A stretch of 64,000 nt of DNA from Desulfosudaceae bacterium (lineage in GTDB: Bacteria > Desulfobacterota > Desulfobacteria > Desulfobacterales > Desulfosudaceae). Shown in pieces: positions 11,555-64,000 of this stretch; the first letter of the stretch is position 1; each line of letters starts with the position of its first letter. A program made the position numbers and the translations under genes. The notes under the pieces were generated by a model. The model did not search any database. It saw only the letters and a program-made list of their open reading frames with translations, and was not told the DNA's origin. The stretch covers positions 2,656,853-2,720,852 of the forward strand of contig CAXXDV010000003.1 in the NCBI GenBank assembly GCA_963674745.2, read 5' to 3'.

Positions 11555-13449
11555 AATTCCAGGTACCGGGAAAAATGAGGCTGGTGCCCTGTTGGTTTTT
11601 CATTCAACGGGATATAACGCAGGCTGTCACGAAAAAGCAAGACCAGTCCGTTTGCCGTCAACGCCCATTCATTTAAAGATGCCTTCATTTGATATCGCCA
11701 TAGCGGTTGTTCATTTTCATAACAGATAATCATGCCCTGACGACTTATTATTTCATAGACATTGTCATGGTCGGCAAAAAAAAGCGCGTCCGAAGATCTG
11801 GTATTACGAACAGCCAGGACAGAAAGATTATTATCCATCCGGTAAAGCTTTTCTTTGCCAAGAGCCAGAACAGGATCAAGGGAAATCAGCGTCAGGTCCT
11901 CATCCGCGTTACTGATCACCGTTTTTTTTCTGTTTCCGCTGATCGTGTTGATCAAAAATACCGTTGCCGAACGGTTCAACACCCCTCCCAGTTGATCATT
12001 ACCGAACATCAACCCGTGGGCACCTCCGCTGGCCTTGAATTTATACGTCACTTCCCCGAACGCGGAATATCCGGTCATGCCCCGGGTATGGGCAACCATA
12101 ATTCCGGCCGCCTCGCATGAAATGCCGTCTGTTACCTCTCCGGCACAATCGGAATCAAGCGGCATGATTTTTTCTATTGTTCCGTCAAACTCCTGTATAA
12201 TCAGCCTGTGATCTCGTGTTATCAGGAATATTTTCTGATGATGATAATTAACAATCGGCCGGCGATAATAGGGATGCTCGTTTAAAATGAGTTTCGATTT
12301 CTTGTGCCCGATATCCACGATCGATATTTGCGCGCCACCGCAGATATACCCGAAAGATTCGTCATCGCTGATTCCGATCGCATTCGCGGGAGATGACAGA
12401 CCGGCCTCAAACCGAACCTTACCCGTCTCATCCAGAAAATGCACATTCCCGTTCCGGCCGATCAACCCCATCAAGGACCCCGAACGATTAACCGTCAATC
12501 TGCGCAGATCAAAACGCGGCATTTCAAAACCAGGTGACTTTTCCCAGGCAGGTACCATATCCTCAACCCGCCTGTTCTCATCGAGCTCGTAAAAATCTCC
12601 GGTCGTGGTTCCGTCAGCTGTGACCAGGTAGCACGTCAGGATACCTTCATCATCAACTATGAAATAACGACTGTTATCATGTGAAATGCCCATCCGGGAG
12701 ACAGTGTGGCTGATGAACGTATGAACCAGAGAATTATACCCGCTGTCAAATAAATTCAGATAATGATTCCCGTCCAGAACCAGTAAAAACCGCCCGTCGG
12801 GTGAAAGTGAGAACTGTGCGGCCGCCGTATCCAGATTCAGCAGATAAAAACCATCACCGCCGGCGTCGAACCGCACCAGGTCTCCGGACTGGTTCTTATA
12901 ATAGCTGTAGCATCCACCGGTCATCATCATATTTTCGGAAACATTAATCCCGTATGCTTCCCATTCGATCTCACCCCGTATATCCGTGCAGACCAGACAA
13001 TGATTCTGCAGATACGCGATAATATTTTCCGTCCCGGGAAAAACGCCGAAACACCGGACCAGATCATCAAAAACAATTTTCTCCCGCGTTGTCCCACCCG
13101 GCGTGATCACCGCAACCTCACGCATATATCCGCCCAGGACGGCACAATTTTTATACAGTTCCAGAAGACGGAATCTTTCATCAACCGGGATTTCGCGCCG
13201 TTGCCTGGTCCACAGGTCAAAGTAAAACAGTTGGCCTTCCCCCAGAAGCGCGAGCGTTGTCCCTTCGGCGTTGACCCTGAACGTCAACGGCCGGAAGGGG
13301 ATCGGATCTTCCCATTCGATTCGGCCTTCGGATGACAGGAATTGCAACCGGCCGTCATTCAAAAGAACAATTATCCCGTTGGTCGTAGGATGAAATTCAG
13401 CCCATATTACCTGATTGCCGGTTGGAACCTGAAAAATGGATGATGTCAT
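11551..13449 (-). CDS. Beta-propeller (WD40/PQQ-like) repeat protein
   Basis: Repeated blade-like motifs (SPDGRFLLV, GRIEWE, GEIEWE); 4-bp overlap with the AAA gene. Confidence 0.6.
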   Translation of the reverse strand: MTSSIFQVPTGNQVIWAEFHPTTNGIIVLLNDGRLQFLSSEGRIEWEDPIPFRPLTFRVNAEGTTLALLGEGQLFYFDLWTRQRREIPVDERFRLLELYKNCAVLGGYMREVAVITPGGTTREKIVFDDLVRCFGVFPGTENIIAYLQNHCLVCTDIRGEIEWEAYGINVSENMMMTGGCYSYYKNQSGDLVRFDAGGDGFYLLNLDTAAAQFSLSPDGRFLLVLDGNHYLNLFDSGYNSLVHTFISHTVSRMGISHDNSRYFIVDDEGILTCYLVTADGTTTGDFYELDENRRVEDMVPAWEKSPGFEMPRFDLRRLTVNRSGSLMGLIGRNGNVHFLDETGKVRFEAGLSSPANAIGISDDESFGYICGGAQISIVDIGHKKSKLILNEHPYYRRPIVNYHHQKIFLITRDHRLIIQEFDGTIEKIMPLDSDCAGEVTDGISCEAAGIMVAHTRGMTGYSAFGEVTYKFKASGGAHGLMFGNDQLGGVLNRSATVFLINTISGNRKKTVISNADEDLTLISLDPVLALGKEKLYRMDNNLSVLAVRNTRSSDALFFADHDNVYEIISRQGMIICYENEQPLWRYQMKASLNEWALTANGLVLLFRDSLRYIPLNEKPTGHQPHFSRYLEL

Positions 13450-47479: not shown

Positions 47480-47682
47480 CATCTAGGAGAAAGTCCATTC
47501 AGGCATGTCTTAAAATGCATTGAAACGCACCACAATCAACAACGACCTCACCAGGGAATTGATAATAAGATACCGGATATGGGTTTGATTATCCGGACAA
47601 ACCGGCCGATTCCGAAGACGTCCGCTGTCAGTCTATGTTTGGTGGCCTGCTTAATCACTACTACGTAAAAAGGGCTGCCTGA
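47480..47682 (+). pseudogene. 3' remnant of the integrase/transposase at 49117-50193
   Basis: DNA closely matches ~49995-50193 (RHVLKCIETHHNQQRPHQGI...KRAA*) with a frameshift. Confidence 0.85.
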
Positions 47683-47930
47683 TAGCGGCCTTTACCTTCA
47701 TGTCATTGCCCGACTTGATCGGGCAATCCAGCCAATTTTACCTGAATCATCCGGTCGTTTTCCTTTTAAGCCCTCGACGTGACTGTTTTTATCGTTGTAT
47801 GAATATTTGTATATTACAAGGCTGGTTGTCTTCACCCCAATCAAAATCGATAAATAATCTTTGACATATTTGTTATAATTTATAATACTTATAGTTGTCG
47901 GCACTAATGATTAGACGTTGAGGTAACAGC

Positions 47931-49116: not shown

Positions 49117-50193
49117 ATGGAAGGCAAGTTATCGCTTCAGGCAACACAGTTTTTAGCGGCTATCGGCCGATTATTCAAATCCCGAATCGCTCTTGAAAAT
49201 GCTTACCTGCTGCAGGAGAATAAAATCCTGCGCAGCAAAATTGGCAAGCGCGTTCCATTGACAGACGCGGAACGCCGGATTCTGGTCAGCGTTGGTATGC
49301 CCATAAAGGATCGGCTGGCCCAGATCATCTCTATTGTAAAACCCGAGACTTTGCTGGCCTTGCACCGGCGCATGAAAAAAGCCAAGTGGACGTATGATAA
49401 TACCCGCAAAAAACCTGGACGGCCAAAGACGCCGGAACAAACGGAAAGCCTTGTCCTGCAAATCGCCCATGAAAATAATATTGGCTATACCCGTATCGCC
49501 GGTGAGCTGATGAAACTGGGCCACTGCCTCTCACCCACTACTGTGGCCAACATCTTAAAAAAGCACGGCCTGCCGCCAGCACCTCAACGCAAAGGCCTGC
49601 CTTGGGCAACCTTCATTAAGTCTCATTTGAACGTCATCTGGGCCACCGACTCTTTTACTGAAGAAGTCTGGACGGCAAGAGGCTTGGTTACATTCTACGT
49701 GCTGTTTTTCATTCACCTTGGCACCTGTAGCGTGCATATCGCCGGCTGCACGCCTCACCCGAATGCTGCCTGGATGAAACAGCAGGCCAGAAACCTGTCC
49801 ATGAAACTTGCCGACGACCAGGCGCCCTGCAGGTATATTATTCATGATCGGGATTCAAGTTTTATACCGTTTGATCAAATCATCAAAACCGACGGCATCA
49901 AAATCGTCAAGACACCACCCAAAACGCCTATGTGTAATGCCTATGCCGAACGATTTGTCCGGGAAGCCAGAGAGACTCTGAACAATATCATCCCTTTGGG
50001 GGAAAGGCATTTTCGGCATGTTCTTAAATGTATTGAAACGCATCACAATCAACAACGACCTCACCAGGGTATAAACAATCGCATACCAGACGGGTTTGAT
50101 TTTCCCGACAAACCCGCCGATCCCGAAGACGTTCGCTGCCAACCCATGCTCGGCGGACTGCTTAATCATTACTACGTAAAAAAGGCTGCCTGA
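49117..50193 (+). mobile_element. DDE (rve) integrase-core transposase
   Basis: PGRP, GYTRIAGEL, WATD, IHDRD, N.YAERFV, N.QRPHQG, LGGLL.HY. Confidence 0.85.
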
Positions 50194-50211
50194 TAGCAGC
50201 CTTTACCTCCA

Positions 50212-50420
50212 CGTCATTGCCCGACTTGCCTTGGATGTCATTGCCTGACGCCCACCTCTGTCATTGCCCGGCTTGACCGAGCAATCCAGCAAAACCGACT
50301 GCCATATATATTGAATCCGGCCAATTTTACTCTGGATCATCCGGTCGAGCCGATGACGTGCAGGGGCGTCATTACCCGGCACTTACCACTGTCATTGCCC
50401 GGCATGATCGGGCAATCCAG
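50212..50420. repeat. Cluster of GTCATTGCCCG-N-CGGGCAATCCAG palindromic repeats
   Basis: Several full and partial copies; same family at 47701-47730 and 59010-59740. Confidence 0.8.
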
Positions 50421-50531
50421 TCATCCGACAGGCCAAACAAACCACAAAAACGGATGAGATATTCCTGTCTTTCTCCTTTTAAACCCTCAGCCTGCCTTTT
50501 TTTATCGCCGTATGAATATTTGTATAGTACA

Positions 50532-50700
50532 CGGCAGAATGGGTGCGCTTTTTGCGGGCGCGGCGCAAAAAGGCAAAAACCCTGGAATATACAAATTGAC
50601 CTCCCACCTTGTACATTCCAGGGTTTTTGAGTTTTTTCTGGAATAAGATTGATCCGCTTCCGCTTATCTGTTCCAGAAAAAACCGTCACCCACTAACACA
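50532..50700. other. Conserved structured non-coding element, copy 1
   Basis: Homologous to 59818-59987; three hairpins in a GGGTG/CACCC closing stem, with compensatory changes between copies. Confidence 0.75.
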
Positions 50701-50761
50701 CATGAAACGAGAAAGAACAAATGTGAAAATATAAAGGGCGTTCCCTACTCCGTCTCGTCCC

Positions 50762-51595
50762 CTACTCCGTCTGGATTGTCCCCATCTTTTTATCAAACTG
50801 CTTTATAATATTGTCACTTAAAATATTTTTAATAAATAAATCCATATCAGAAGAAGATTCAACAGTTTGTTCATATACTACGGCTCCCCCGTCAACCTCT
50901 ATGGCTTTAATATTTAAACTAGACTTCTTCATTCCTTGAATTATAAGAGCACCGTTAGCCGCTTTAAGTTTGCCCATTTTTTGTTTGAAGGTTTTTTGCC
51001 GTTTGCTGACAGCAAAAGATTCTTGGAGAAATAGGCATTCTTCAACATATCTTCGTGTAAGAATGGAAATGCCCTCGGTTTTAATAAGACGAGTAATAAA
51101 AAGGGAACTCAGATTATTACAGGGGTCATTTCTTATTATTGATAGATTTATTCCTTTTAATTCTCCATGAACAAATTTTTCGTTGTAATTTTCAATTATT
51201 TTAAAGATAGCATTTTTATTATCCCTGAAACTACTGATCAAATTAGCGCCTTCTTGCATTTGATGAAATATTATTATCCCATTTTTGGCATTTATTATTT
51301 CAGTAGAAATAAATATCTGATTAGAAGAATCTTTACATTTTCTCATAGTTATCAAAAACATCCTATCATCAGCAGTTATTCGTTTATATAACTGCAAAGT
51401 ATCATTAACTTCAAACATTTCGTTGCTTAATTCGCTAAATCCTTTCTCAAGGCATAATTTCTTAATTTCTATTTCCGCCTCAAGGCCACTTGAATTAAAA
51501 TCAAATCCAATAATCAGCTCACCAGCGCTTACATTAATTGCTAACAGAATCATAAGGATAAAAAATGAATAAAGAGTTATAGTTTTCATTTTCAA
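50762..51595 (-). CDS. Putative immunity/partner protein of Rhs tip 1, exported
   Basis: AT-rich; directly downstream of the Rhs tip; signal peptide ending NVSA. Confidence 0.6.
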   Translation of the reverse strand: MKMKTITLYSFFILMILLAINVSAGELIIGFDFNSSGLEAEIEIKKLCLEKGFSELSNEMFEVNDTLQLYKRITADDRMFLITMRKCKDSSNQIFISTEIINAKNGIIIFHQMQEGANLISSFRDNKNAIFKIIENYNEKFVHGELKGINLSIIRNDPCNNLSSLFITRLIKTEGISILTRRYVEECLFLQESFAVSKRQKTFKQKMGKLKAANGALIIQGMKKSSLNIKAIEVDGGAVVYEQTVESSSDMDLFIKNILSDNIIKQFDKKMGTIQTE

Positions 51596-51613
51596 CTTTA
51601 CACCCCTAAATAT

Positions 51614-52432
51614 TTATTGTCCGGTAAGGTAATTGTTCGGTGTTGATTGATATGGTGATGGTTTAATTAGTTTAAGTAGAAAGTTGTGGGTTCTAATTTC
51701 ACCATAATTGAGTTCTGAAACGTATTTTTCACTGGATGAGCTACGATCGACTCCATATAATTCCGCATCAGGATTATATATAGGCGGCATAAATCGTCCA
51801 TTCATTTTTACTATTTCAAGCATGTCATCAGAGTTTACAAACACTTCGAACTTATACTTTTCTGGTACTATAAAAGCGTAATTTCCTTTTTCATTAGTTA
51901 AGCTATAGTAGCAACAATCTCCATCAAGAATATCTAAAAGGACCGTTGCATTTTGCACTGGTGTTAAACGCACCGTATTAAAAATGGCGTTAACTCGACC
52001 TTTTATCACACCATATACTTTGACTTTAAAAATATCCCCGGGTTGAATTAAATCTGGAAGATTATGTCGTCCCGGCGCTGGCTCTTCAAGAGATAACCAT
52101 TGAGGCCAATCGCCTAGTGACAAATTTGACAATTTCTCTTCTTTAATTCTATCAATTAAACCCGATATTGTATCATTACACTCCGCTTCCCATTCTTCCC
52201 AAGTTAATTCATCCGCAGCAATATCACTTCCGTTTTGGACTCGTTTTAGGAGGACTTTAACTATACGATACGAAATCTCCTTCCATAGTCCTATAGGGTC
52301 ATAATAACTAGAAGGAGCATTTACAATGAAACAATATAGATTCAAGCCGCCTGTTTCCTCAATTGGATCCCGATTAATCCATCTTCCCATCTCAGCAGAA
52401 TAGTATCTGTAACCAGATATTACAACGCGCAT
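51614..52432 (-). CDS. Rhs core C-terminus plus variable tip 1 (LysM-like and carboxypeptidase-regulatory-like domains)
   Basis: GYRYYSAEMGRWINRDPIEETGGLNLYCF..N.P..YYDPIGL followed by a unique AT-rich tip. Confidence 0.88.
   Translation of the reverse strand: MRVVISGYRYYSAEMGRWINRDPIEETGGLNLYCFIVNAPSSYYDPIGLWKEISYRIVKVLLKRVQNGSDIAADELTWEEWEAECNDTISGLIDRIKEEKLSNLSLGDWPQWLSLEEPAPGRHNLPDLIQPGDIFKVKVYGVIKGRVNAIFNTVRLTPVQNATVLLDILDGDCCYYSLTNEKGNYAFIVPEKYKFEVFVNSDDMLEIVKMNGRFMPPIYNPDAELYGVDRSSSSEKYVSELNYGEIRTHNFLLKLIKPSPYQSTPNNYLTGQ
52401..52432. other. Candidate recombination (att) site, copy 1
   Basis: TGTAA-CCAGATA-TTACA (52408-52424); DNA identity with copy 2 ends at 52401. Confidence 0.7.
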
Positions 52433-52599
52433 CCCCCCTAAGAAGCTTGTTTTTTGACCCCCCTGGGCTTGCCTGTCAAAGAACGAACTGTTTTAAAAAT
52501 TAGAACATTTTCCCCAATAATGCAAGAACTGACGGCAGTTAAAAAAGGAAAGGTTTCTTTCTTAACTGCCGTTTGCGGATTATGGTTCCGGCCCGGATA

Positions 52600-53511
52600 T
52601 TATAATCCGGGGTGATACTTCTTGTGGATTTCTTTTAAGTCGTTGATGGTAACGCGGGTGTATATCTGTGTGGATTCTAAAGATTCATGGCCAAGCATTT
52701 CTTGAAGATGGCGGATGGGAGCGCCGTTTTTTAGCATATGGGTGGCGCAGGTATGGCGGAACGTGTGGACGGTGATGTTTTGCCGGAGACCGGCCAGGTG
52801 GGCGCACTGCTTGATATTCTTCCAAATGGTATGGGTTTTGATCTGGCCGCCCTTGTCGTTTAAAACAAGCCAGCCCATATCCTTGCCTTTCAGCAGTCCC
52901 GGCCGGATGCCAAGAATATAGGTGTTGATCAGTTCACAGACGTTTGTGCTTAACGGAACGACACGTTCCTTGTTGCCTTTGCCCAGCACCTTGACAAAGC
53001 CTGTCTCAAGTTCAAGGTCATACAGTTTGATATGGCTGAGTTCCGCTCTTCTGATGGCAGTATCATAAAGGATCTCTAACATGATCCGGTCCCGGTAGCC
53101 GCTGTTTGTCCGCATGTCCGGAGCGTTCATGATTTGCTTTATCTCCTGTCGGCTCATGATGGCCCTGGGCAGTCGCCGGGGCTCTTTGGGCAGCTTGATG
53201 CCTGATCCGGGATCGGATATAAGATAATCTTTTTCTTTTAAGTACCGGGTAAACAGCATGACAGTGCTCAAACTTTTTGACTGGGTCCGGGCTGACAGGG
53301 GCGTTCCCTTGGCTGTTACGGTAAAGGCAAGTTCCTGCTGGTAGTCTTCCAGCACCTCCCGGCTGAGGTCTTCAATATTTGTAAGGCCGTTATCTTCAAG
53401 GTAACGGGCAAAACGGCGCAATATAAACCGTGCTCCCCTGACCGTAAAGTATGACCGGCCCTGGGCCTGCATGTGGGTCAGGTATGCCGGGATAATAGTG
53501 TTTATGTTCAC
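52600..53511 (-). CDS. Xer-type tyrosine recombinase B, copy 1
   Basis: TAIRRAE, GKGNKER, HTFRH, LGH, TQIYT; GTG start with GGAGG RBS overlapping the upstream TGA. Confidence 0.92.
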   Translation of the reverse strand: MNINTIIPAYLTHMQAQGRSYFTVRGARFILRRFARYLEDNGLTNIEDLSREVLEDYQQELAFTVTAKGTPLSARTQSKSLSTVMLFTRYLKEKDYLISDPGSGIKLPKEPRRLPRAIMSRQEIKQIMNAPDMRTNSGYRDRIMLEILYDTAIRRAELSHIKLYDLELETGFVKVLGKGNKERVVPLSTNVCELINTYILGIRPGLLKGKDMGWLVLNDKGGQIKTHTIWKNIKQCAHLAGLRQNITVHTFRHTCATHMLKNGAPIRHLQEMLGHESLESTQIYTRVTINDLKEIHKKYHPGL

Positions 53512-54419
53512 GGTTCCTCCTGTGTGTTGGGGTGGGTTCTGGTGTGGGTGTCCTTGATCTCGACGGGCATGACTTTTGTATATTGCTGGGTGGTCTTTAA
53601 ATACTTGTGGCCCAGCAGTTTCTGGATATAGCGGATGTCCGCGCCCTGCTGAAGCATGTGGGTCGCGCATGATCGCCGGAACGCATGAAGCCCCACCGGC
53701 TCTTTTATCCCGGCTTTTCTGCGATAAGTATCAAGGCTTACGCGCAGGCTTCCCCAGGTCAGGGGACGGCCTTCAACCGTCAAAAACAGTTTTCTTTCCC
53801 TGGGGTTTCTTCGCGCGTGCTTTGGCCGGATGTGTTCAAGGTATTCTTTTAGATAGTGGACGGCGGATTTGCCCAGGGGAACAACACGTTGTCTTTTGCC
53901 TTTGCCTTTGCGGATATAAAGCACGTTGTCCCTTGTGTCCACGTCATATATATGCAGGTTTAAAAGTTCGTTTGACCGGATGCCGGTGGAGTACAGCACT
54001 TCCATGACGGCCCGATCCCGGATCTGGGCGTTTAAAGAAAGGTTTGGCTGATCAAAAAGGAGTTTGATTTCTTGTCTTGTTAACACCCGGCCGATGGTTC
54101 TTTTTTTGCGTCCGGTCTCCTTGATCCCTTCGGCCGGGTTGATTAAAAGCCGGTGGGTCTCTGTCAGATGTTCAAACAGCCGCTTGACAGCCCTGATCCT
54201 TATGGCCCTGGTCTCGGCGGCTTTGGGCAGCCCCATGACCTCCGCCTGGTACTCCTGCATGATCCGGTCATTAACCTGCCTGATGTCCGTTATTTCTATT
54301 TTGGTAAGAAAGGAAACAAAACATTTTAAGCCGTATTGATAAGCCTCTATCGTTTTAGGGGCATAGCCCCTGACTTTAAGATATTGCTTGAACTCCCCTA
54401 CAACTACGACGACCTCCAT
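53508..54419 (-). CDS. Xer-type tyrosine recombinase A, copy 1
   Basis: STGIRSNE, GKGKRQR, HAFRR, LLGH, TQQYT. Confidence 0.92.
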   Translation of the reverse strand: MEVVVVVGEFKQYLKVRGYAPKTIEAYQYGLKCFVSFLTKIEITDIRQVNDRIMQEYQAEVMGLPKAAETRAIRIRAVKRLFEHLTETHRLLINPAEGIKETGRKKRTIGRVLTRQEIKLLFDQPNLSLNAQIRDRAVMEVLYSTGIRSNELLNLHIYDVDTRDNVLYIRKGKGKRQRVVPLGKSAVHYLKEYLEHIRPKHARRNPRERKLFLTVEGRPLTWGSLRVSLDTYRRKAGIKEPVGLHAFRRSCATHMLQQGADIRYIQKLLGHKYLKTTQQYTKVMPVEIKDTHTRTHPNTQEEP

Positions 54420-54459
54420 TTATACCCCCTCTCCCCCCCCGCTGTTTCTTGCTCCACAA

Positions 54460-54579
54460 CCTCGTAGTTGTTCGGCTTATGGTTTAACATCAATGCCTTA
54501 AGTGCCATTTTGCCGCCCCTCGTAGTTCCCTCGTAGTGGCTTTATTTACCCTCGTAGTTGCCCGGATTACCCTCGTAGT
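54460..54579. repeat. Five CCTCGTAGT direct repeats (iteron-like), copy 1
   Basis: Starts at 54460, 54518, 54529, 54550, 54571; an inverted partial copy AACTACGA lies near 54402. Confidence 0.85.
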
Positions 54580-54582
54580 CCG

Positions 54583-57240
54583 CTATTTTTTCTCTTTCTT
54601 CATCAGCTTTTTGATTTCTTCTGTCGGGGTCAGATTCAAATAAAACCGGGTATTGTCCTCGCCCTGGCCCTTGTAGTTCAAGGCGTAAGCGTATTCCTTG
54701 CCGCGAGCCCCGAACCGGACCAGCAGGTATTCCAGGTCTTCCAACTGGCTGATGTGGGCGCGGATCTGCCAGTCCGTCCAGTTGATTGATTCTCTGATCT
54801 GCCGCCGGGTAAAAAAGACTTCATCAACCGGAAGCTTCTGCTTTTTGGATATGTCCCTGACCATTTTGTAAATCCCGTCAAGTAAAAGCCGGGAAGGCCG
54901 GGCCAGCTCGTCCAGGCTCTGGCCCAGGACGTCATTGGCCAGGGTGTTGGCCTTGTCGATATCGTTTAAGGTAACTTCGATGTACTCCACGGCTTTTCCT
55001 TCAACCTGCACGGTCTTTGCCTGCCTCTGGTACTGGTGCAAAAAGGCAATGGCTTCGATCAGGCCCAGGTACTTGTCATGGTCCCTTCTGCTGATCAGCG
55101 ATTTTGTGGGATAGGACAGATACGGCGTAAAAGGATTGACTACGGCCACGGGCTTTAACATCTGCTGGGCGATCTGGTGGATACGTTCGATATGGGTTGA
55201 TTTAGTCCGGTTGACCAGGCCCTCCAACGTTCTGGCCTGCTTCTGCTTGTCATGGATGGCGGCCGTCATCTGCTCGGACTCGTCGATTGATAAAAAGATA
55301 AACCGGGAAGCTGTCTCGGCGTCGATGTCGGCCGCCGTGGTGGTCAGCATGACCGAGACCGGGCCTTCAACAGTATACGTTTCGGTCTTCATCTTGCCGG
55401 TGCCGGGGTCCTTTCCCGTGGCCGCCACCCTGATCCGGCCTTCTGATTGGATATTGCGGATAGAATAAGCAGCCCCGCCCACGCCCGCCTCCTCCTCGAT
55501 GGCCAGGATTTTATTTTTTAACGATCCTTCTTCCTTGTAAAAAAGGGCCTGGTCGGTCACGCGGGTGTATTTTTCTTGATGGCTTTCCGGAACAAAGCGG
55601 AGGATAGCGTTCTGCAATGTCGATTTGCCTGCCCCGCTTCTGGACTGGATCAACGTGGACAAGGGCTTGGCCAAAAGCCGGGACACGGCCGTCAGATAAC
55701 ACACGATCTTGTTTGTCTCCTCGCCCACAATGCCCATGATCAGTAAGGCGTCCAAAATAGCCTTGAACATGTCCGGGGATTTTAAAAAGGTCTCTGCGGC
55801 CTTCTTTTCTGTCTGGCTGGGCTCGATGGCCTTGGCCTCTTTTTCTTTGGGCTGGTAGTTCTCTACCAGGGTCAACAGCTTGCCGATGTCTTCCTTGACC
55901 AGCTCCTCGGCCGCTCCGAACAGATCGGCGCAGAGTTTCGCGAACCAGAGCCGGGACCGGGAAGAATAAAGATCAATGGTGGTCAGTTCAAACGGCAGGC
56001 TGCCCTCAACGTCCGGGGATGCCTTGATCACGGCTTTTAACTGGGTTTCTCCTCGGCAGATACCCTTGACATGGTATTGCCGTTCTCCGTATCCCACGAT
56101 AAAGCCGCTTTCCGTGTGTTTGAATAACGTTTTTTTGCGGGGATAGACATGGTCGGAGTGCTCCAATGATTTTGGGTTGGCCTGTTTTAACAAAGCCTCG
56201 AACTGCTCCGGCGTATGCCGGTTAAAGTAGATGTTCACGTCTTTTACCGGCAGCTCGACCGTATAGGGCGTGATCTGTTTATCTTTTAGCTGCAAGCCTA
56301 CGGCCTGGGCAGCTTTTTTGCCGGGGTCATCGGCATCAAACACAAGATAGGCTTCCTTTATTCTGCCTTTGCAGTATGCCAGATGATCGTCAATAAGGCC
56401 GTTGGTGCCATACAACGGCATGACGTTTTTAAAGCCCTGGTCGTAAAGGGTCAGGGCGTCAATGACAGACTCTGTTAAAAGAATAGCCTGGGAGCGTTTG
56501 ACGGCCTGACGGTTGACCAGGCCGGACCGGCTGCCCGGCAAGTACAAATGGGTCAGGTCGCAGGATTCGTCTATGTTGCGGCCGTAAAGATTGACCACGG
56601 CCCCGCTCCCGTCATAGAGCGGGAACACGACACAGTTTAAAAAGCGTTCGTTTCCTTTGGCGTTTAAGATGCCGATGGTTTTTAAATCACTGGTGATCTG
56701 ATCGTCATCCGGCAGGATGGACAATAAGGTGCCGTTGACATAGCCTGCCCCGAAGTCCTTTAAAGACTGGTTGCGGGTAATGCCTCTTTTGTTCTTGAGG
56801 TAATCCAGGCCCTGGGTGGTTTCTTCCAGGGTGTGCTGGTAATAGGCGATCACGCGGGCCAGGAGTTTCTTTTGTTTGACGGTCAGAGGTTTTGTATTGT
56901 CGGGATTTTCTTTGGGTTGTGGTTGTGGTGGGGGTTTTCTGGTTGGGGTTTTGCGCGGGGTCGTCATTTCATTGGCGGATAGTATCCGCACGGCCTCGGT
57001 AAAGTCCACCCGGTCAAACAGTTCGATAAACCGGATCACGTCCCCGGCTGCGCCGCAGCCAAAGCACTGCCAGAGGTTTGTTTTTGGATTGATGGAAAGG
57101 GAAGGATTTTTATCGTCATGGAAGGGACACAGGCCGAAGTAACCCCGGCCGTTCTTTTTCAACTTGATGCCCCTGGCCTCGGCCAGGGCCACCATGTCAA
57201 CAGTGGCTTTGATATGGTCTATCTTTTCTTGTTCTATCAT
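54583..57240 (-). CDS. DnaG-like primase-helicase (CHC2 zinc finger, Toprim, P-loop NTPase)
   Basis: CPFHDDKNPS...CFGC; ESVIDAL and FDADD Toprim motifs; SRSGAGKS Walker A. Confidence 0.9.
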   Translation of the reverse strand: MIEQEKIDHIKATVDMVALAEARGIKLKKNGRGYFGLCPFHDDKNPSLSINPKTNLWQCFGCGAAGDVIRFIELFDRVDFTEAVRILSANEMTTPRKTPTRKPPPQPQPKENPDNTKPLTVKQKKLLARVIAYYQHTLEETTQGLDYLKNKRGITRNQSLKDFGAGYVNGTLLSILPDDDQITSDLKTIGILNAKGNERFLNCVVFPLYDGSGAVVNLYGRNIDESCDLTHLYLPGSRSGLVNRQAVKRSQAILLTESVIDALTLYDQGFKNVMPLYGTNGLIDDHLAYCKGRIKEAYLVFDADDPGKKAAQAVGLQLKDKQITPYTVELPVKDVNIYFNRHTPEQFEALLKQANPKSLEHSDHVYPRKKTLFKHTESGFIVGYGERQYHVKGICRGETQLKAVIKASPDVEGSLPFELTTIDLYSSRSRLWFAKLCADLFGAAEELVKEDIGKLLTLVENYQPKEKEAKAIEPSQTEKKAAETFLKSPDMFKAILDALLIMGIVGEETNKIVCYLTAVSRLLAKPLSTLIQSRSGAGKSTLQNAILRFVPESHQEKYTRVTDQALFYKEEGSLKNKILAIEEEAGVGGAAYSIRNIQSEGRIRVAATGKDPGTGKMKTETYTVEGPVSVMLTTTAADIDAETASRFIFLSIDESEQMTAAIHDKQKQARTLEGLVNRTKSTHIERIHQIAQQMLKPVAVVNPFTPYLSYPTKSLISRRDHDKYLGLIEAIAFLHQYQRQAKTVQVEGKAVEYIEVTLNDIDKANTLANDVLGQSLDELARPSRLLLDGIYKMVRDISKKQKLPVDEVFFTRRQIRESINWTDWQIRAHISQLEDLEYLLVRFGARGKEYAYALNYKGQGEDNTRFYLNLTPTEEIKKLMKKEKK

Positions 57241-57496
57241 ATCTCGTCTCCCGATTTCTGAGTTGGTTAAAAAGGATGTCGCGTAAATGATTCAAGGACT
57301 CTCTGAACTGGACCGGATTTACCAAAGCATGGCCGTCCCGGTAGGCCCGGTCATGCTCGACCAGGTCCGGACCGGTGAACATAAAAGACGCGATCTGTTT
57401 GCCGTTGCCGTTAAAGCGGATGTCGTCCAGCCGCCCGCCCATGCACAGGTAAAACGCCCCGCGAAAGATGTCGGTTGTTTCTAACGTGGATGTCAT
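57197..57496 (-). CDS. Small hypothetical protein upstream of the primase
   Basis: AGGAGG RBS; overlaps the primase start. Confidence 0.65.
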   Translation of the reverse strand: MTSTLETTDIFRGAFYLCMGGRLDDIRFNGNGKQIASFMFTGPDLVEHDRAYRDGHALVNPVQFRESLNHLRDILFNQLRNRETRYDRTRKDRPYQSHC

Positions 57497-57758
57497 ACGG
57501 ATCACCTCCTTTCATTTGATTTTTTGCGGGAGATGAGATAGAAAAAGAAAAGGTTTTCAAAGGGTTTTGGCCCTTTGAGTTCCGATCTCGGCCATCAACC
57601 TCGTCCGCCAAGACAAAGTGGTTGATGGCCTTTTCTTCGCAAACCCCCGTCAATTAACTGTCAAGCAAAAAAAATGATGGATTTTATTTTTAAATCGTGA
57701 TTAACTTTATAGTGATTCACTTATAATGTCAAGCACAAAAATAAGTGTTTCCTAAAGT

Positions 57759-58154
57759 ATGAGATATAATATGTTCATGAAAAACAAAGATAAAAAATTC
57801 CCCAAGCCGATGATAATCGGCGATGAGACGTTTGGTCAGAGGCTTGCGAGGATAAGAAAAGAAAAAGGCTATACTCAGGTTGAGTTGTCAAAAAAAATGG
57901 ATATGATCCAGGTCCTGATTTCTGACTATGAACATGACAAACTCCGACCACATCACGAGATAATCGCCCGCTTTGCAAAAGCCCTTAGTGTATCTGCCGA
58001 CGCGCTTCTTGGGCTTGAGAAAGACGCGCAGAGCCAAAATACACCAAGCCTTAAAATTCAACGAAGAATGAATAAAATCGAACAGCTTCCGCCATCTCAA
58101 CAAAGGGCTCTCTTGCAAACCATTGATGCCTTTGTTAAAGGTGTCAGCAAATAA
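57759..58154 (+). CDS. Xre-family HTH regulator
   Basis: FGQRLARIRKEKGYTQVELS...ISDYE...ALSVSADALLG; divergent from the primase operon. Confidence 0.88.
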   Translation: MRYNMFMKNKDKKFPKPMIIGDETFGQRLARIRKEKGYTQVELSKKMDMIQVLISDYEHDKLRPHHEIIARFAKALSVSADALLGLEKDAQSQNTPSLKIQRRMNKIEQLPPSQQRALLQTIDAFVKGVSK

Positions 58155-58170
58155 GAAACCGAGGTGATTT

Positions 58171-58401
58171 ATGGAAAAATTTATCAATATCCACGTTGAG
58201 AAGTTGCCGGAAGGTGTTTATTTGGCAACATCCGATGATGTATCCGGACTGGTGGCCCAGGGACGGACGGCAACCGAAGCGTTAGAGATCGCGCGTGATG
58301 TGGCCCGTAAACTCCTTGAGGCAAAAGCCGAGAGAAGCGGCCAGATTAATCTTTCTGTAATTGGCGATTCTTTTGATTATCCCCTGATTGTGAACGCATA
58401 A
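58171..58401 (+). CDS. hicB: Short HicB-like antitoxin
   Basis: EGVYLATS.DVSGLVAQGRT..EALEIARD. Confidence 0.8.
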   Translation: MEKFINIHVEKLPEGVYLATSDDVSGLVAQGRTATEALEIARDVARKLLEAKAERSGQINLSVIGDSFDYPLIVNA

Positions 58402-58402
58402 C

Positions 58403-58626
58403 ATGGGACGATTAGCGGATTCCGATATAAAGAGATCACAAAACGATTAAAGGCACACGGGTTTTTATTCGATCGTCAGGCCGCCGGAAGCCATGAGATC
58501 TGGTATAACCCGCAAACTGATCGATATACCACCGTTCCCAATCATCCGGGAGAGATGCCCGAAGGTACGTTGAGGGCGATCTTAAAACAAGCCAATATTA
58601 CCCCTGACGAATTTCTGAAAAAATAA
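58403..58626 (+). pseudogene. hicA: HicA toxin, frameshifted near codon 6
   Basis: One extra G in GCGGATTC restores MGRLAGFRYKEITKRLKAHGF.FDRQAAGSHEIWY...VPNHPGEMPEGTLRAILKQA. Confidence 0.85.
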
Positions 58627-58755
58627 AAACAAAGGTAGGTCTCCGTGCTCGGGCTCCAGCCACGCTTATTATATTTATTGGCGTGGCTTCCGCTTCCTGC
58701 GCGCGGAGCCCGGTCCTGATTTTATATCTATTCCCACCCTCCACCCTAAAAGGAA

Positions 58756-58949
58756 GCCGCCGCGCGTTTATTTGGTTGTTCCCTGCCTGTCATGCCGTCT
58801 GCATCTTCTTACATAATCAAACCTTAATTATCGGTCGTTGCATCCATTTTAAAAAACCATAAGGCAGCAACAACCGATAATTCTGATTATGTAATCAGAC
58901 GCAAGCGTCACGCCAGGCAGGGGCGGACAGCCCCGGCAACAGCGGCGGC
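58756..58949. other. Long imperfect hairpin containing two inverted dif-like sites
   Basis: ACAACCGATAA-TTCTGA-TTATGTAATCA (58870-58897) and, on the minus strand, ACGACCGATAA-N11-TTATGTAAGAA (58838-58806). Confidence 0.65.
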
Positions 58950-59009
58950 GTCTGTTCTTTTCATTCTCCCGGCCGCCCTCCCCTGGATAAGGTAACGGTC
59001 AATTTTATT

Positions 59010-59740
59010 CTGGATTGCCCGGTCAAGCCGGGCAATGACGCGGAAGGAAGCCAAACCGAACCCGTGGCGACATAAAAACCGGGGTTTTTCGGCAAGGGTA
59101 AGGTATGGGTCCGGCCGGGATCGTCGTTTCTGCGGGCAATGAGGGGACCGGATTCTTTTGTCATCCCCTCGGCTTGAGCTTCCTTATGTCATCCTCCGGC
59201 TTGTCCGGGGGATCCAGGTAAAACGGAAGGCCGGACAGATTCCGGTAATGGGCGAAGGATTTTCTTTTTTAATTGCCGCTGCGAGCGGAAGGAGCGGAGC
59301 CCGCCGGTAGTTTGGCGGGCAAAGCCTGAGCACGCAGCAGAAAACAACAACCCGTAAAAGAGTTAAAGCCGAGGCAGAGGGGTGAGCCCGCCCGGCGGAG
59401 ACAGGGCTGGCGCGGGCCTTGCCCAACCGGGCAATTAAAAAGAAAAAAGGATGAAGACGGAAGACGGACGATTTTTAAAGAAAGAACCTACAAAAGCAAG
59501 GGCCGTGACAGCCCTGGCGAGGGGGAGAGGCGCGGGGGGCGGGCTTAAGATTGATCGCGTGGGGCGCACCTTTTTCTGCCGGCGCCGGATATTTTGCAAG
59601 GCAGGACTCGAAGCCACGGCAGAGCCTGGCGCGCGGCCTTGCATTTCCGCCGGTCATCCTCCGGCCTTTCTCCCTCGTCATTACCCGACTTGATCGGGTA
59701 ATCCATTATTCTGGATCCCCTGGTCAAGCCAGAGGATGAC
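59010..59740. repeat. GTCAT...ATCCAG palindromic repeats in both orientations
   Basis: CTGGATTGCCCGGTCAAGCCGGGCAATGAC (~59010), GTCATCCTCCGGCTTGTCCGGGGGATCCAG (~59188), GTCATTACCCGACTTGATCGGGTAATCCA (~59677), CTGGATCCCCTGGTCAAGCCAGAGGATGAC (~59711). Confidence 0.8.
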
Positions 59741-59817
59741 CAAAGGCATGCAAGGCGCGTGACAGGCGGGGCATACATCAAAACCCACTTACCCGCACGG
59801 CTACAGGCGAGGACGGC

Positions 59818-59987
59818 CGGCAGAATGGGTGCGCTTCGGGGGGCGTGGCCCCGAAGGCAAAAACCCTGGAATATACAAATTGACCTCCCACCTTGTACAT
59901 TCCAGGGTTTTTGAGTTTTTTTGACCATAAGATTGATCCCATTCCCTATGGCCGTTGGGCAAAAAAACCGTCACCCACTCACACACA
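59818..59987. other. Conserved structured non-coding element, copy 2
   Basis: Homologous to 50532-50700, at the same position just downstream of the immunity gene. Confidence 0.75.
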
Positions 59988-60028
59988 AAGACAATCATAT
60001 AAGCATAGTCAGCCCCTATTTGCCCCCT

Positions 60029-60751
60029 TTATACTTTAGGAATATTTTCTTCTAAATAGGGCAAAATGACATCACATATTTTGAGAAATTTATATAAATT
60101 CTCTTCTAAGTTTTCCGCGGAATCAAATTTAAATCCTTGTGTGTATGCATTCGGGTATAGCAAAGAAAAATCAATTTGCAATAATGGTTTTTCAAAACCA
60201 AAATTAAAATGTAGTTTAGAAATAATACTTCCACGCTCGATTAAAATATAAATTCTATTGCCATTTGCTATTTTCTTAGAAAATTTAGTTTCGCCTTTGA
60301 ATGAATACCCTTCATTGAATTTATATTCAGGTTTATTAGCCGCAAAAACTTTTTTTAATATACTATTAACATTAATTTTAATTTGTACAACACTTTTAGA
60401 GCGTTCCTTTTTTCGAAAATAATCTTCATCCCCTTTATTTTCTTTTAACCACTTAATTACTTCTTCGCGATTGTTACTGATTTCTTGAGTAATCTCTTTA
60501 GGGAAAGGTTCGTAATCCCTTAATAACCTATATCGTAAATCTTTATTAAAATATTTAATTTCAGAAATTAAAAATTTATTCTTTAATTTTTCATCGATTT
60601 CATCATAATACTTCATAAAATATTTAATATAGCTTCTATTATCTATAAGTTCTACTGGATATTCCTCAAAAGGAAATTCTTTATATAGAATTTTTCTTTG
60701 CATTTCAGAAAACAACTTTACCATTTTTTCCTCGAGGCTTTTATTCTCCAT
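60029..60751 (-). CDS. Putative cytoplasmic immunity protein of Rhs tip 2
   Basis: Very AT-rich; downstream of a nuclease-like tip; no signal peptide. Confidence 0.6.
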   Translation of the reverse strand: MENKSLEEKMVKLFSEMQRKILYKEFPFEEYPVELIDNRSYIKYFMKYYDEIDEKLKNKFLISEIKYFNKDLRYRLLRDYEPFPKEITQEISNNREEVIKWLKENKGDEDYFRKKERSKSVVQIKINVNSILKKVFAANKPEYKFNEGYSFKGETKFSKKIANGNRIYILIERGSIISKLHFNFGFEKPLLQIDFSLLYPNAYTQGFKFDSAENLEENLYKFLKICDVILPYLEENIPKV

Positions 60752-60891
60752 ACTTATGTATTCCTATATTTTTATTAATTTTATTATCCCCCATGTCTTT
60801 TATATTTTCACAAACTATTGTGGCATCTTCAAATTTTTATAATTTATTTTCATTGTATGTTTTACATTAATCACAATCATTTAAAAACAAT

Positions 60892-61680
60892 TTAGGGGAC
60901 AGGGATTCTAATACCACCAGGCAATGGAAAATATTTTTCTAATAATTTCCTAGTTTCTTCCCCTGCTTCAATAAATTCTTTTTCCAGTGCTTTGACTGAT
61001 TCGCTTTGATTTTGACTATTTGATTCTTCTAATCTCAATCCATAAAAAATAAAGCCTTTTCTACCATAGTTTTCACCAGGATAAACCCTAATCGAAAATT
61101 CATTACCAAACATATCTTTCACGTTATAATCATCAGGTAAATCTTCGTGCGGTGTGTTAAAAAAGTCTCTTGAGTCACCCATGCTATAACACTTATCGGT
61201 GATCTGTTCTAAATATCTTTCAATCTGCGAATCATCATTATCCCAAAAACTTGGTGCTTTATGTGTAATTGGCTTTATTTCCCAAAGATAGTTTTTGTCC
61301 ATATCTCTAGAAATTATATCAGGTCTTCGCATTGATATAAAACCATATGTTTTTAATGGTCTATCGTATTGCAAATTATTATATTTAGTATTAACATCAT
61401 CAATATAATCCATGATTGCAGTATGGCTAACTGTCCCAAGAAAGCCGGTATAAAATTTGATAAAACGACCAACAGGGTTTAAATAGGAAGCGTTTGACTC
61501 AAGTTCAACTTCAAAAGGATAAGGATCAGCCATCAGGCCAAGAATATCAAAATAATTTATAGAATTATTTAAGGCAAAGGAATAAAGATTTCTACCCCCT
61601 CTTTCCCCCAACGGATCCCTACTCAACCACCTCCCCAATTCCGCCGAGTAGTATCTGTAACCAGATATTACAACGCGCAT
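60892..61680 (-). CDS. Rhs core C-terminus plus variable tip 2 (PD-(D/E)xK nuclease-like toxin)
   Basis: GYRYYSAELGRWLSRDPLGERGGRNLYSF..N.....DILGL; tip carries H...RPDII...WEIKP...QIERY. Confidence 0.85.
   Translation of the reverse strand: MRVVISGYRYYSAELGRWLSRDPLGERGGRNLYSFALNNSINYFDILGLMADPYPFEVELESNASYLNPVGRFIKFYTGFLGTVSHTAIMDYIDDVNTKYNNLQYDRPLKTYGFISMRRPDIISRDMDKNYLWEIKPITHKAPSFWDNDDSQIERYLEQITDKCYSMGDSRDFFNTPHEDLPDDYNVKDMFGNEFSIRVYPGENYGRKGFIFYGLRLEESNSQNQSESVKALEKEFIEAGEETRKLLEKYFPLPGGIRIPVP
61649..61680. other. Candidate recombination (att) site, copy 2
   Basis: Identical to 52401-52432; core TGTAA-CCAGATA-TTACA at 61656-61672. Confidence 0.7.
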
Positions 61681-61873
61681 CCCCCCTAAGAAGCTTGTTT
61701 TTTGACCCCCCTGGGTTTGCCTGTCAAAGAACGGATTGTTTTAAAAATTAGAACAATTTACCCAATAATGCAAGGATTGACGAAGAACCGGCAAAGGATT
61801 GACGGCAGTTAAAAAAGGAAAGGTTTCTTTCTTAACTGCCGTTCACGGCTTATGGTTCCGCACGTGGATTCCG

Positions 61874-62785
61874 TTATGAACCGGGATGATACTTCTTGTG
61901 GATTTCTTTTAAGTCGTTGATGGTAACGCGGGTGTATATCTGTGTGGATTCTAAAGATTCATGGCCAAGCATTTCTTGAAGATGGCGGATGGGAGCGCCG
62001 TTTTTTAGCATATGGGTGGCGCAGGTATGGCGGAACGTGTGGACGGTGATGTTTTGCCGGAGACCGGCCAGGTGGGCGCACTGCTTGATATTCTTCCAAA
62101 TGGTATGGGTTTTGATCTGGCCGCCCTTGTCGTTTAAAACAAGCCAGCCCATATCCTTGCCTTTCAGCAGTCCCGGCCGGATGCCAAGAATATAGGTGTT
62201 GATCAGTTCACAGACGTTTGTGCTTAACGGAACGACACGTTCCTTGTTGCCTTTGCCCAGCACCTTGACAAAGCCTGTCTCAAGTTCAAGGTCATACAGT
62301 TTGATATGGCTGAGTTCCGCTCTTCTGATGGCAGTATCATAAAGGATCTCTAACATGATCCGGTCCCGGTAGCCGCTGTTTGTCCGCATGTCCGGAGCGT
62401 TCATGATTTGCTTTATCTCCTGTCGGCTCATGATGGCCCTGGGCAGTCGCCGGGGCTCTTTGGGCAGCTTGATGCCTGATCCGGGATCGGATATAAGATA
62501 ATCTTTTTCTTTTAAGTACCGGGTAAACAGCATGACAGTGCTCAAACTTTTTGACTGGGTCCGGGCTGACAGGGGCGTTCCCTTGGCTGTTACGGTAAAG
62601 GCAAGTTCCTGCTGGTAGTCTTCCAGCACCTCCCGGCTGAGGTCTTCAATATTTGTAAGGCCGTTATCTTCAAGGTAACGGGCAAAACGGCGCAATATAA
62701 ACCGTGCTCCCCTGACCGTAAAGTATGACCGGCCCTGGGCCTGCATGTGGGTCAGGTATGCCGGGATAATAGTGTTTATGTTCAC
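61874..62785 (-). CDS. Xer-type tyrosine recombinase B, copy 2
   Basis: Protein identical to copy 1 except the last residue (S vs L). Confidence 0.92.
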   Translation of the reverse strand: MNINTIIPAYLTHMQAQGRSYFTVRGARFILRRFARYLEDNGLTNIEDLSREVLEDYQQELAFTVTAKGTPLSARTQSKSLSTVMLFTRYLKEKDYLISDPGSGIKLPKEPRRLPRAIMSRQEIKQIMNAPDMRTNSGYRDRIMLEILYDTAIRRAELSHIKLYDLELETGFVKVLGKGNKERVVPLSTNVCELINTYILGIRPGLLKGKDMGWLVLNDKGGQIKTHTIWKNIKQCAHLAGLRQNITVHTFRHTCATHMLKNGAPIRHLQEMLGHESLESTQIYTRVTINDLKEIHKKYHPGS

Positions 62786-63693
62786 GGTTCCTCCTGTGTG
62801 TTGGGGTGGGTTCTGGTGTGGGTGTCCTTGATCTCGACGGGCATGACTTTTGTATATTGCTGGGTGGTCTTTAAATACTTGTGGCCCAGCAGTTTCTGGA
62901 TATAGCGGATGTCCGCGCCCTGCTGAAGCATGTGGGTCGCGCATGATCGCCGGAACGCATGAAGCCCCACCGGCTCTTTTATCCCGGCTTTTCTGCGATA
63001 AGTATCAAGGCTTACGCGCAGGCTTCCCCAGGTCAGGGGACGGCCTTCAACCGTCAAAAACAGTTTTCTTTCCCTGGGGTTTCTTCGCGCGTGCTTTGGC
63101 CGGATGTGTTCAAGGTATTCTTTTAGATAGTGGACGGCGGATTTGCCCAGGGGAACAACACGTTGTCTTTTGCCTTTGCCTTTGCGGATATAAAGCACGT
63201 TGTCCCTTGTGTCCACGTCATATATATGCAGGTTTAAAAGTTCGTTTGACCGGATGCCGGTGGAGTACAGCACTTCCATGACGGCCCGATCCCGGATCTG
63301 GGCGTTTAAAGAAAGGTTTGGCTGATCAAAAAGGAGTTTGATTTCTTGTCTTGTTAACACCCGGCCGATGGTTCTTTTTTTGCGTCCGGTCTCCTTGATC
63401 CCTTCGGCCGGGTTGATTAAAAGCCGGTGGGTCTCTGTCAGATGTTCAAACAGCCGCTTGACAGCCCTGATCCTTATGGCCCTGGTCTCGGCGGCTTTGG
63501 GCAGCCCCATGACCTCCGCCTGGTACTCCTGCATGATCCGGTCATTAACCTGCCTGATGTCCGTTATTTCTATTTTGGTAAGAAAGGAAACAAAACATTT
63601 TAAGCCGTATTGATAAGCCTCTATCGTTTTAGGGGCATAGCCCCTGACTTTAAGATATTGCTTGAACTCCCCTACAACTACGACGACCTCCAT
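62782..63693 (-). CDS. Xer-type tyrosine recombinase A, copy 2
   Basis: Protein identical to 53508-54419. Confidence 0.92.
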   Translation of the reverse strand: MEVVVVVGEFKQYLKVRGYAPKTIEAYQYGLKCFVSFLTKIEITDIRQVNDRIMQEYQAEVMGLPKAAETRAIRIRAVKRLFEHLTETHRLLINPAEGIKETGRKKRTIGRVLTRQEIKLLFDQPNLSLNAQIRDRAVMEVLYSTGIRSNELLNLHIYDVDTRDNVLYIRKGKGKRQRVVPLGKSAVHYLKEYLEHIRPKHARRNPRERKLFLTVEGRPLTWGSLRVSLDTYRRKAGIKEPVGLHAFRRSCATHMLQQGADIRYIQKLLGHKYLKTTQQYTKVMPVEIKDTHTRTHPNTQEEP

Positions 63694-63733
63694 TTATACC
63701 CCCTCTCCCCCCCCGCTGTTTCTTGCTCCACAA

Positions 63734-63853
63734 CCTCGTAGTTGTTCGGCTTATGGTTTAACATCAATGCCTTAAGTGCCATTTTGCCGCCCCTCGTAGT
63801 TCCCTCGTAGTGGCTTTATTTACCCTCGTAGTTGCCCGGATTACCCTCGTAGT
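63734..63853. repeat. Five CCTCGTAGT direct repeats, copy 2
   Basis: Same as 54460-54579. Confidence 0.85.
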
Positions 63854-63856
63854 CCG

Positions 63857-64000
63857 CTATTTTTTCTCTTTCTTCATCAGCTTTTTGATTTCTTCTGTCG
63901 GGGTCAGATTCAAATAAAACCGGGTATTGTCCTCGCCCTGGCCCTTGTAGTTCAAGGCGTAAGCGTATTCCTTGCCGCGAGCCCCGAACCGGACCAGCAG
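63857..64000 (-). CDS. 3' end of primase-helicase, copy 2 (partial)
   Basis: Matches 54583-54726. Confidence 0.9.
   Translation of the reverse strand: MLVRFGARGKEYAYALNYKGQGEDNTRFYLNLTPTEEIKKLMKKEKK

Follow-up and report, generated by a model that had tools for sequence, protein, structure and literature searches.

Tandem primase/Xer elements in a Desulfosudaceae genome and the probable exchange of Rhs tips by insertion at rhs codons

How do unrelated C-terminal tips of Rhs proteins come to stand, one after the other, behind near-identical copies of the same primase and recombinase genes? The question is raised by positions 50532 to 64000 of a 64,000-nucleotide stretch of the 5.5-Mb genome of a Desulfosudaceae bacterium (G000, contig C3, 2656853–2720852; the whole stretch is called the window in the following). 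Here, two head-to-tail copies of an element lie on the minus strand with a period of 9,248 bp, each presenting the series primase-helicase, iterons, XerA, XerB, attachment site (att), Rhs tip, partner gene and hairpin. With a probability of roughly 80%, the two copies are tandem integrative, and probably self-replicating, elements of about 9.2 kb that insert at codons of rhs genes and thereby swap the tips. So far, the acquisition of tips and the pile-up of old ones have been explained by homologous recombination; an element with its own recombinase pair, a replication module and an att site placed in toxin codons would provide a concrete, testable mechanism of weapon exchange, and would link the arrays of orphan tips to mobile DNA.

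In the proposed sequence of events, the element would run in the order Rhs tip, immunity gene, terminator hairpin, Xre/HicB-like genes, primase-helicase, iterons, XerA, XerB and right end. XerA and XerB, which are presumed to perform the recombination, would join its att site to the matching codons in an rhs gene already present, such that the element enters the gene and its own tip becomes joined in frame to the Rhs shell. The former tip and its immunity gene would be displaced to a position behind XerB and kept there as an orphan with the right end of the element; serial insertions at the same site would build the tandem array. A circular form, of 9,248 bp in the case of the window, would presumably exist as well and be replicated by the primase at the iterons.

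Element ends and recurrent neighbourhoods

The scan for XerB, with one genome per species, yielded 80 loci, of which three hold a primase together with two Xer genes; Rhs cores lie alongside in all three. The exact ends of an element are given by loci L010 and L011, separated by 2.1 Mb on the same 6.2-Mb contig in a metagenome-assembled genome labelled delta proteobacterium. Their common stretch of 6,892 bp (99.97% identity) starts 9 nt ahead of the RYYDP codons of a tip and stops ≈ 190 nt past XerB. At L010 the element resides within an rhs open reading frame (ORF) of 1,295 aa, which reads through the left junction, and at the right junction, behind XerB, a different tip starts with the same codons. 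At L011 the element interrupts, out of frame, a repeat-protein gene that is not an rhs gene, the empty site being deduced from two neighbouring paralogous repeat units. Element and target have ≈ 7 nt in common at this place, with short inverted arms on either side in the element, and this short identity locates the crossover within a 7-nt spacer. The split target gene (L011:3700-4242 and 11091-11631) encodes tandem repeats of 73 aa. Read from the DNA, the two loci bear the signature of site-specific insertion by a tyrosine recombinase at a primary and at a secondary site, and they show that the tip forms the leading edge of the element and XerB the trailing one.

The right end is common to elements from many samples: a G-run and an A-run are followed by a short box that is repeated, then by a second G-run and the element-side arm. 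Behind this arm come a short central region and an arm formed by Rhs coding sequence (arms as read from the listing of junctions), and from the central region onwards the sequence matches the full-length gene found at the respective locus. On the core model, the join falls at position 20 for one class and near 33 for a second, at 36 in L010 and at 50 in L123, and it lies several hundred bases upstream in one further group. To judge from these junctions, att is a conserved element arm plus a short spacer plus an arm of Rhs codons, the join point of which varies by clade. A 14-nt word shared by the two att sites of the window corresponds to the presumed spacer and right arm. The promoter scan returned 30 sites against 19.7 ± 4.4 expected, none of them within the right-end motif, so that an outward promoter at this place is unsupported.

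These ends also bear on the textbook model, in which the C-terminus of an Rhs protein is displaced by homologous recombination with the rhs core. If RecA-driven exchange of this kind were at work, the primase/Xer element would be a passenger; tips and resident rhs genes do share 40–80 nt of core homology. For the present elements this is a very improbable explanation: the insertion at L011 took place with ≈ 7 nt in common with its target, and in each element class the identity across the junction starts at the same base, beside a conserved non-coding arm. The join classes also track the XerB clades, with 8 changes on the XerB tree against a shuffled mean of 15.8, an agreement that is descriptive only, since relatives share labels. 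The first-pass annotation of the window had proposed site-specific rather than RecA-driven exchange, by entry of the element into Rhs core codons with fusion of its own tip and relegation of the old one downstream; both the fixed join base and the ends of L010 and L011 speak for it, as do the neighbourhoods described in the following.

Of 401 genomes from the phylum, G147, G223 and G299 encode a full-length relative of the primase-helicase, and G211 a fragment; the short contigs of these four genomes, where long enough, hold core, cargo, primase, XerA, XerB and a core fragment. The family is not rare: a metagenome scan with the primase alignment gave 292 relatives, from which 79 loci were retained, and the same scan of a viral contig collection gave no relative. 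Behind XerB, a same-strand Rhs core is found at a distance of 0.2–2 kb in 20 of 21 ends (XerB at least 50% identical, at least 1,300 nt downstream), an insertion sequence (IS) occupying that position in the single miss; six ends with less room are core-positive as well. On the other side, a core lies within 6 kb upstream in 17 of the 22 primase copies preceded by at least 3,500 nt, often inside ORFs of 700–1,500 aa (range 706 to 1,512 aa) with the tip fused in frame, and all 53 core matches are on the strand of the primase.

The two units of the window

The gene order of both units was derived from the ORF listing and a Pfam profile search. All features lie on the minus strand unless stated otherwise. 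The upstream unit (unit 2) is incomplete, since contig C3 stops at base 64000: of its primase-helicase gene the 3' end, i.e. the last 60 codons, is left (63816..64000, codons 63998-63816). The sequence beyond 64000, to which the first-pass annotation had looked for more units, does not exist on this contig. An iteron block of 10-nt repeats in the gap between primase and XerA (63784..63856) is followed by XerA (62782..63693), XerB (61874..62800) and the right end with its hairpin, conserved boxes and G-run/A-run motif up to att (61675..61873). The att site itself (61646..61674) is made up, partly by analogy with L010 and L011, of an element-side arm, an 8-nt central region and a right arm formed by the Rhs codons for GYRYY. 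Next come Rhs tip 2 (60892..61680), partner gene 2 (60029..60751) and a conserved block (59758..59991), the ≈ 22-bp hairpin of which resembles a terminator. Between this block and the primase gene of unit 1, and divergent from the primase operon, lie a DUF1902/HicB-like ORF (58171-58401) and an Xre-type repressor gene (57759-58154), both on the plus strand.

Unit 1 comprises the primase-helicase gene (54583..57240, 885 aa), iterons in four exact 10-nt copies and one partial copy (54510..54582), XerA (53508..54419, its product identical to that of unit 2), XerB (52600..53526; the start of the longest ORF is at 53670), a right end of ≈ 170 non-coding nt with hairpin, conserved boxes and G-run motif (52427..52599) and att (52398..52426). 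Tip 1 (51614..52432), which would be the oldest displaced tip of the array, and partner gene 1 (50762..51595) precede the conserved block with its hairpin, at which the array ends (50532..50714). The series from primase-helicase to the structured element is thus present twice, ORFs, Pfam matches and hairpins all agreeing with the order read in the first pass. The hairpin 3' of each partner gene, with a stem of ≈ 22 bp, reaches z values of -5.0 and -6.3 against shuffled sequence, and a further hairpin 3' of each XerB gene -4.8 and -5.7.

The 14-nt att word occurs at exactly two sites of the genome, 52401 and 61649, from which the spacing of 9,248 bp follows. Around it, the stretches 52333-54726 and 61581-64000 are 97.4% identical; the copies are identical over ≈ 2 kb (52700-54726), and all 83 differing columns fall within 52300-52700. 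Against this near-identity of the backbones, the C-terminal parts of the two tips are mutually unrelated and so are the partners (BLASTP E 0.074 and 1.7), as had been noticed from the sequence in the first place. That the tandem arose from one element by duplication, or was created from it in the assembly, is hardly credible in the light of these differences, even though the contig stops inside the repeat and the Xer region is the same in both copies. The regions of tip 1 and tip 2 are both covered by mismatch-free contigs of the source runs, and at least 8 of the 79 metagenome loci likewise contain copies in tandem.

Depth argues in the same direction. It was read at contig level from the Logan contigs of the source runs, where starts, ends and rare junctions are invisible. 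In run X15 the backbone has a depth of 14.4–17.5 against 7.9 for the flank, i.e. about twofold, which fits a second full backbone copy that is only partly assembled. Run X16 gives 26–28 for the backbone, 16.5 for tip 2 and 10.7 for tip 1 against 7.2 for the flank; the excess of tip 2 and backbone could reflect extra copies of one unit or library bias, and depth at contig level is not enough to decide for the former.

XerA and XerB match PF00589 with 142–152 bits and the SAM-like N-terminal domain PF02899 above its cut-off, and both retain the R, HxxR, H and Y residues of tyrosine recombinases. Against the XerC and XerD equivalogs they score 225–241 bits, below the cut-offs of 330–335; a separate housekeeping XerD (367.5 bits) is encoded in the genome, such that XerA and XerB come on top of it. 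The primase-helicase has a CHC2 zinc ribbon, DNAG_N and Toprim domains above cut-off and a putative P-loop helicase domain in its C-terminal half, in which DUF5906 reaches 17.7 bits (cut-off 27.6) and a Walker-A-like motif is visible; the dnaG domain model gives 187.9 bits at a cut-off of 283.6. The iterons are candidate origin or accessory sites. Of 61 primase–XerA spacers, 33 contain three or more copies of an iteron variant, and the divergent Xre gene is found in relatives too. The first pass had also listed a hicBA pair beside the Xre gene; the Xre gene stands, and of the pair there is the HicB-like ORF of 76 aa (DUF1902, 24.4 bits, cut-off 22). No HicA-like ORF was found near it, the small ORFs there having been given no family search, and the locus does not present a HicAB toxin–antitoxin pair.

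Both tips open with the same piece of the Rhs core, positions 33–76 of TIGR03696, and then diverge. At a cut-off of 32.5 bits, tip 1 scores 47.9 and tip 2 51.5; the RHS repeat-associated core with its DPxGL-type motif is present in both, with coverage limited to these model positions. The tips are presumably toxins and their partners the cognate immunity proteins. Partner 1 starts with a hydrophobic leader, and partner 2 has neither a signal peptide nor a known family. An Atlas search with tip 2 led to clusters containing Tox-REase-9/VRR_NUC, a lead, and no more than that, to a possible toxin of the restriction-endonuclease fold; the search with tip 1 (scores 0.84–0.86) provided no usable lead. 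AlphaFold2 without alignment gave an unusable model of the C-terminal domain of tip 2 (mean pLDDT 39), and the predicted complex of tip 2 with partner 2 scored 0.01 and is uninformative. The 44 tips collected from relatives group into 40 clusters when the threshold is 40% identity. The domain scan covered 40 of the 44 tips, leaving out three duplicates and one piece of 40 aa; three match Peptidase_M23, TseH and Stv above cut-off, and one matches CHAP below it.

Several observations concern the remaining sequence in and around the array. The region 58400-59760, ≈ 1.3 kb and GC-rich (up to 58% GC), contains no convincing ORF, and an Rfam search of 50000-64000 gave no match; part of the region is kept at the end of contig C2 (85%). 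Palindromic repeats of ≈ 30 nt, similar to repetitive extragenic palindromes or miniature inverted-repeat transposable elements (MITEs), are strewn in and around the array (47679-47731, 50237-50289, 50368-50420, 59010-59049 and 59165-59217), with one more copy on contig C1. Just past the array end, a duplicated stretch of 340–540 nt (47486-47822 and 49999-50535, 79–87% identical) brackets an IS-type transposase gene (rve_3, 49117-50193).

Head of the array, orphan tips and circular forms

TIGR03696 matches 16 places of the genome, namely four long frames, one fragment and eleven orphan tips, among them the two of the window. The long frames measure 945 to 4,462 aa, and one of them, with an ORF of 938 aa, is located close to where contig C2 ends. 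Locus L006 (C3, 36–52 kb; core at C3:44566), tried as an empty site, turned out to be an uninformative 239-aa rhs fragment among IS copies; at C3:44566 a complete core stands in an open frame of just 317 aa.

The head of the array is probably the rhs gene on C2, as homology and contig-level depth suggest. Its ORF contains the full core of the window's class (81.7 bits) and matches RHS_repeat (56.9 bits) and YD_repeat_2x, i.e. the repeats of the shell. It is followed by a tip, an ORF of 121 aa and 840 nt that resemble the left part of the element, at which point C2 ends; these 840 nt correspond to the window from 59991 down to 59085 and to 50714-50532, in the same order and with 85–97% identity. 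The order of the whole would then be C2 rhs, tip 3, partner 3, backbone, att, tip 2, partner 2, backbone, att, tip 1, partner 1. As to the full-length rhs gene with the same codons that the first-pass annotation had anticipated in this genome, the C2 gene is of the same core class and differs by one base from the 14-mer.

The nine orphan tips outside the window form two arrays. Six follow directly downstream of a second primase–XerA–XerB set on C1, the DNA of which is 75–82% identical to that of the window and the primase of which has no zinc ribbon. Three follow the rhs gene of 4,462 aa on C3 (L005, C3:2403562-2413240), with no recombinase or primase near. A non-coding motif of ≈ 60 nt, common to all orphans, stands in front of each of them and runs into Rhs codons, the join being at the GYRYY codons in the window and at PGQY codons in the other nine; a loose search of the genome for the motif returned only those nine places and six chance matches. 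At the C1 locus (L002, C1:1412654-1427124), which represents a second lineage of the element, the primase gene directly abuts upstream housekeeping genes, for pyruvate:ferredoxin oxidoreductase and aconitase, a DDE transposase gene lies within the array of six PGQY-class tips, and a full-length rhs gene of the PGQY class is found nearby on the opposite strand. Some spacers at L005 resemble junctions, running from the block after an immunity gene to the right end of an element, as if backbones had been deleted.

The backbone-free arrays are what an integron- or rAID-like arrangement might produce, in which a fixed platform captures cassettes of tip and immunity gene and the main benefit is a store of immunity rather than the arming of rhs. 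Orphan tips with the right-end motif stand both after the second Xer pair on C1 and behind the rhs gene on C3, and the displaced tips of class II have no in-frame start codon, their partner genes being kept; polyimmunity loci beside XerC/D, and rAID-1 loci, are on record in the available parts of the respective reports (PMC3482391; bioRxiv 10.1101/471110). This arrangement is unlikely as the explanation. The identical copies at L010 and L011 behave as one unit that moved with its tip in front and XerB behind, and at many loci it is the tip upstream of the primase that is fused in frame to a long rhs ORF; cargo upstream of the recombinases is not what a fixed platform predicts. Platform and mobile element can both be valid if cassettes also move in trans.

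Terminal direct overlaps occur in two of the 79 metagenome contigs, L179 and L188. L188 is the same element as L193 (99.9–100% identity), which lies behind a full core; taken together, the two show an attP-like and an attL form that share the central region. In L188:6988-7160 and L193:8479-8596 different insertions are found at the same base of the hairpin that follows XerB, one a small palindromic MITE-like piece, the other unrelated sequence where the contig ends. In the window, a joint from 59985 to 50679 (9307 back) was considered as a circle junction and discarded, as it rests on 31 letters of the repeated block. In X1, a metagenome from marine sediment, there is cover of the backbone at 90% identity or more and none of either tip or either partner; short contigs join core codons to the post-partner block with undetermined letters between, a hint at the same backbone with other cargo.

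A number of observations weigh against insertion of a self-replicating element at rhs codons as the explanation of the array. No circle was found in the contigs of the source runs or of the metagenomes, and as identical units also occur in tandem (two in L198), the overlaps of L179 and L188 are no proof of one. The left junction of the array is off the contig of the window, so that its link to C2 is a matter of homology and contig-level depth. The nine orphans elsewhere carry the right-end motif with no backbone between them, which demands an extra step, either deletion or movement in trans. A Pfam search of both tips and both partners of the window, with E values allowed up to 1, gave matches at chance level, 36 of the 40 scanned tips of relatives have no Pfam match, and transfer genes are absent from the element. 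At seven XerB ends with 596–902 nt of room no core was detected, a result that is not decisive given that the offsets of the positives span 234 to 2,020 nt, and the close relatives L151 and L153 have no upstream core. In the distant subfamily, with XerB 39–44% identical, a core lies downstream in none of five. The distant branch seems to use another target, and yet L123, which groups there, is in rhs. Its members L160, L162, L163, L164 and L167 have the same primase–XerA–XerB backbone with an iteron variant of their own, and in L160 XerB is followed by genes for a sensor kinase and response regulators.

A more speculative extension may be considered, which is rather doubtful at present. Besides bringing in new tips, XerA and XerB might excise and re-insert units, backbone-free ones included, between any pair of att sites, such that the array would serve as a toxin magazine from which a clone switches the tip fused to its Rhs shell. 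Circles might replicate via primase and iterons, the pair of toxin and immunity gene might act as a greenbeard by which the element spreads in populations, and backbone-free cassettes might be non-autonomous and ride along in trans.

Comparison with known systems

C-terminal displacement of Rhs proteins, together with arrays of orphan tips, was reportedly described by Jackson et al. in 2009 (cited in PMC13183296), and displacement by homology is said to have been treated by Koskiniemi et al. in 2014. As in that model, the core receives a new pair of tip and immunity gene, and the preceding pair stays behind as a downstream orphan; the present system differs in that a defined element with two recombinases and a primase is involved, and a fixed att site takes the place of a stretch of homology. 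What it has in common with integrons is that cassettes enter at one site through the action of a tyrosine recombinase, older ones being shifted down the array. In contrast to integrons, there are two recombinases, with 126.8 and 107.9 bits far below the cut-off of 265 for the integron integrase TIGR02249, the att site lies inside coding sequence, and the recombinases travel with the cargo.

Phages and islands that integrate in the Campbell manner enter the 3' end of a gene, either for a tRNA or a protein, and bring a replacement for this end. Here as there, attP would overlap a copy of the 3' part of the target and the gene would be intact after insertion; the replacement would, however, be a different module, i.e. 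a new toxin tip, so that the function of the gene changes. In shufflons the recombinase Rci inverts resident segments and thereby changes the PilV tips of plasmid R64. Both systems would have a tyrosine recombinase swap C-terminal tips inside coding sequence, with the difference that the tips discussed here would arrive by insertion of a mobile, replicating element.

P4-like satellites and tycheposons are small integrative elements that replicate. Together with the IMEX/dif modules (treated in the available part of PMC10210955), they resemble the present element in the combination of tyrosine recombinase, primase-helicase, repressor and cargo, and in a dif-like core site. The target is an rhs gene here instead of a tRNA gene or dif, and the element has its own Xer pair instead of that of the host; by definition an IMEX has no recombinase of its own and integrates at dif, whereas two recombinases and a target in rhs codons are found in this case.

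The rAID-1 loci of Bacteroidales have one recombinase and immunity genes and no primase, according to the available portions of two reports (bioRxiv 10.1101/471110; PMC12247911). The definition given there calls for a single recombinase with 44% or more identity to the reference from B. fragilis and, behind it, at least two co-oriented genes with at most 41% GC (bioRxiv 10.1101/471110). Polyimmunity loci adjoin XerC/D in the accessible part of another account (PMC3482391), and Xer systems beside poly-immunity loci in Xenorhabdus and Photorhabdus are mentioned in a second-hand remark. The likeness consists in an Xer-like recombinase next to low-GC, co-oriented, toxin-related cassettes with repeated intergenic motifs; the genes downstream of the recombinases have 25–39% GC here, in a different layout. 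Against the single recombinase of rAID-1 stand two recombinases and a primase, and the portions of the rAID-1 accounts at hand mention neither insertion into a toxin gene nor a unit with defined ends. In the available text of PMC5361080 it is stated that there is no evidence for an integrase that inserts effector–immunity pairs, and searches of full-text literature, with subscription papers and supplements outside the scope, gave no description of an element inserting in the Rhs core. In kind, the element of the window is a tyrosine-recombinase integrative element; what is unusual about it is the target and the consequence of the insertion.

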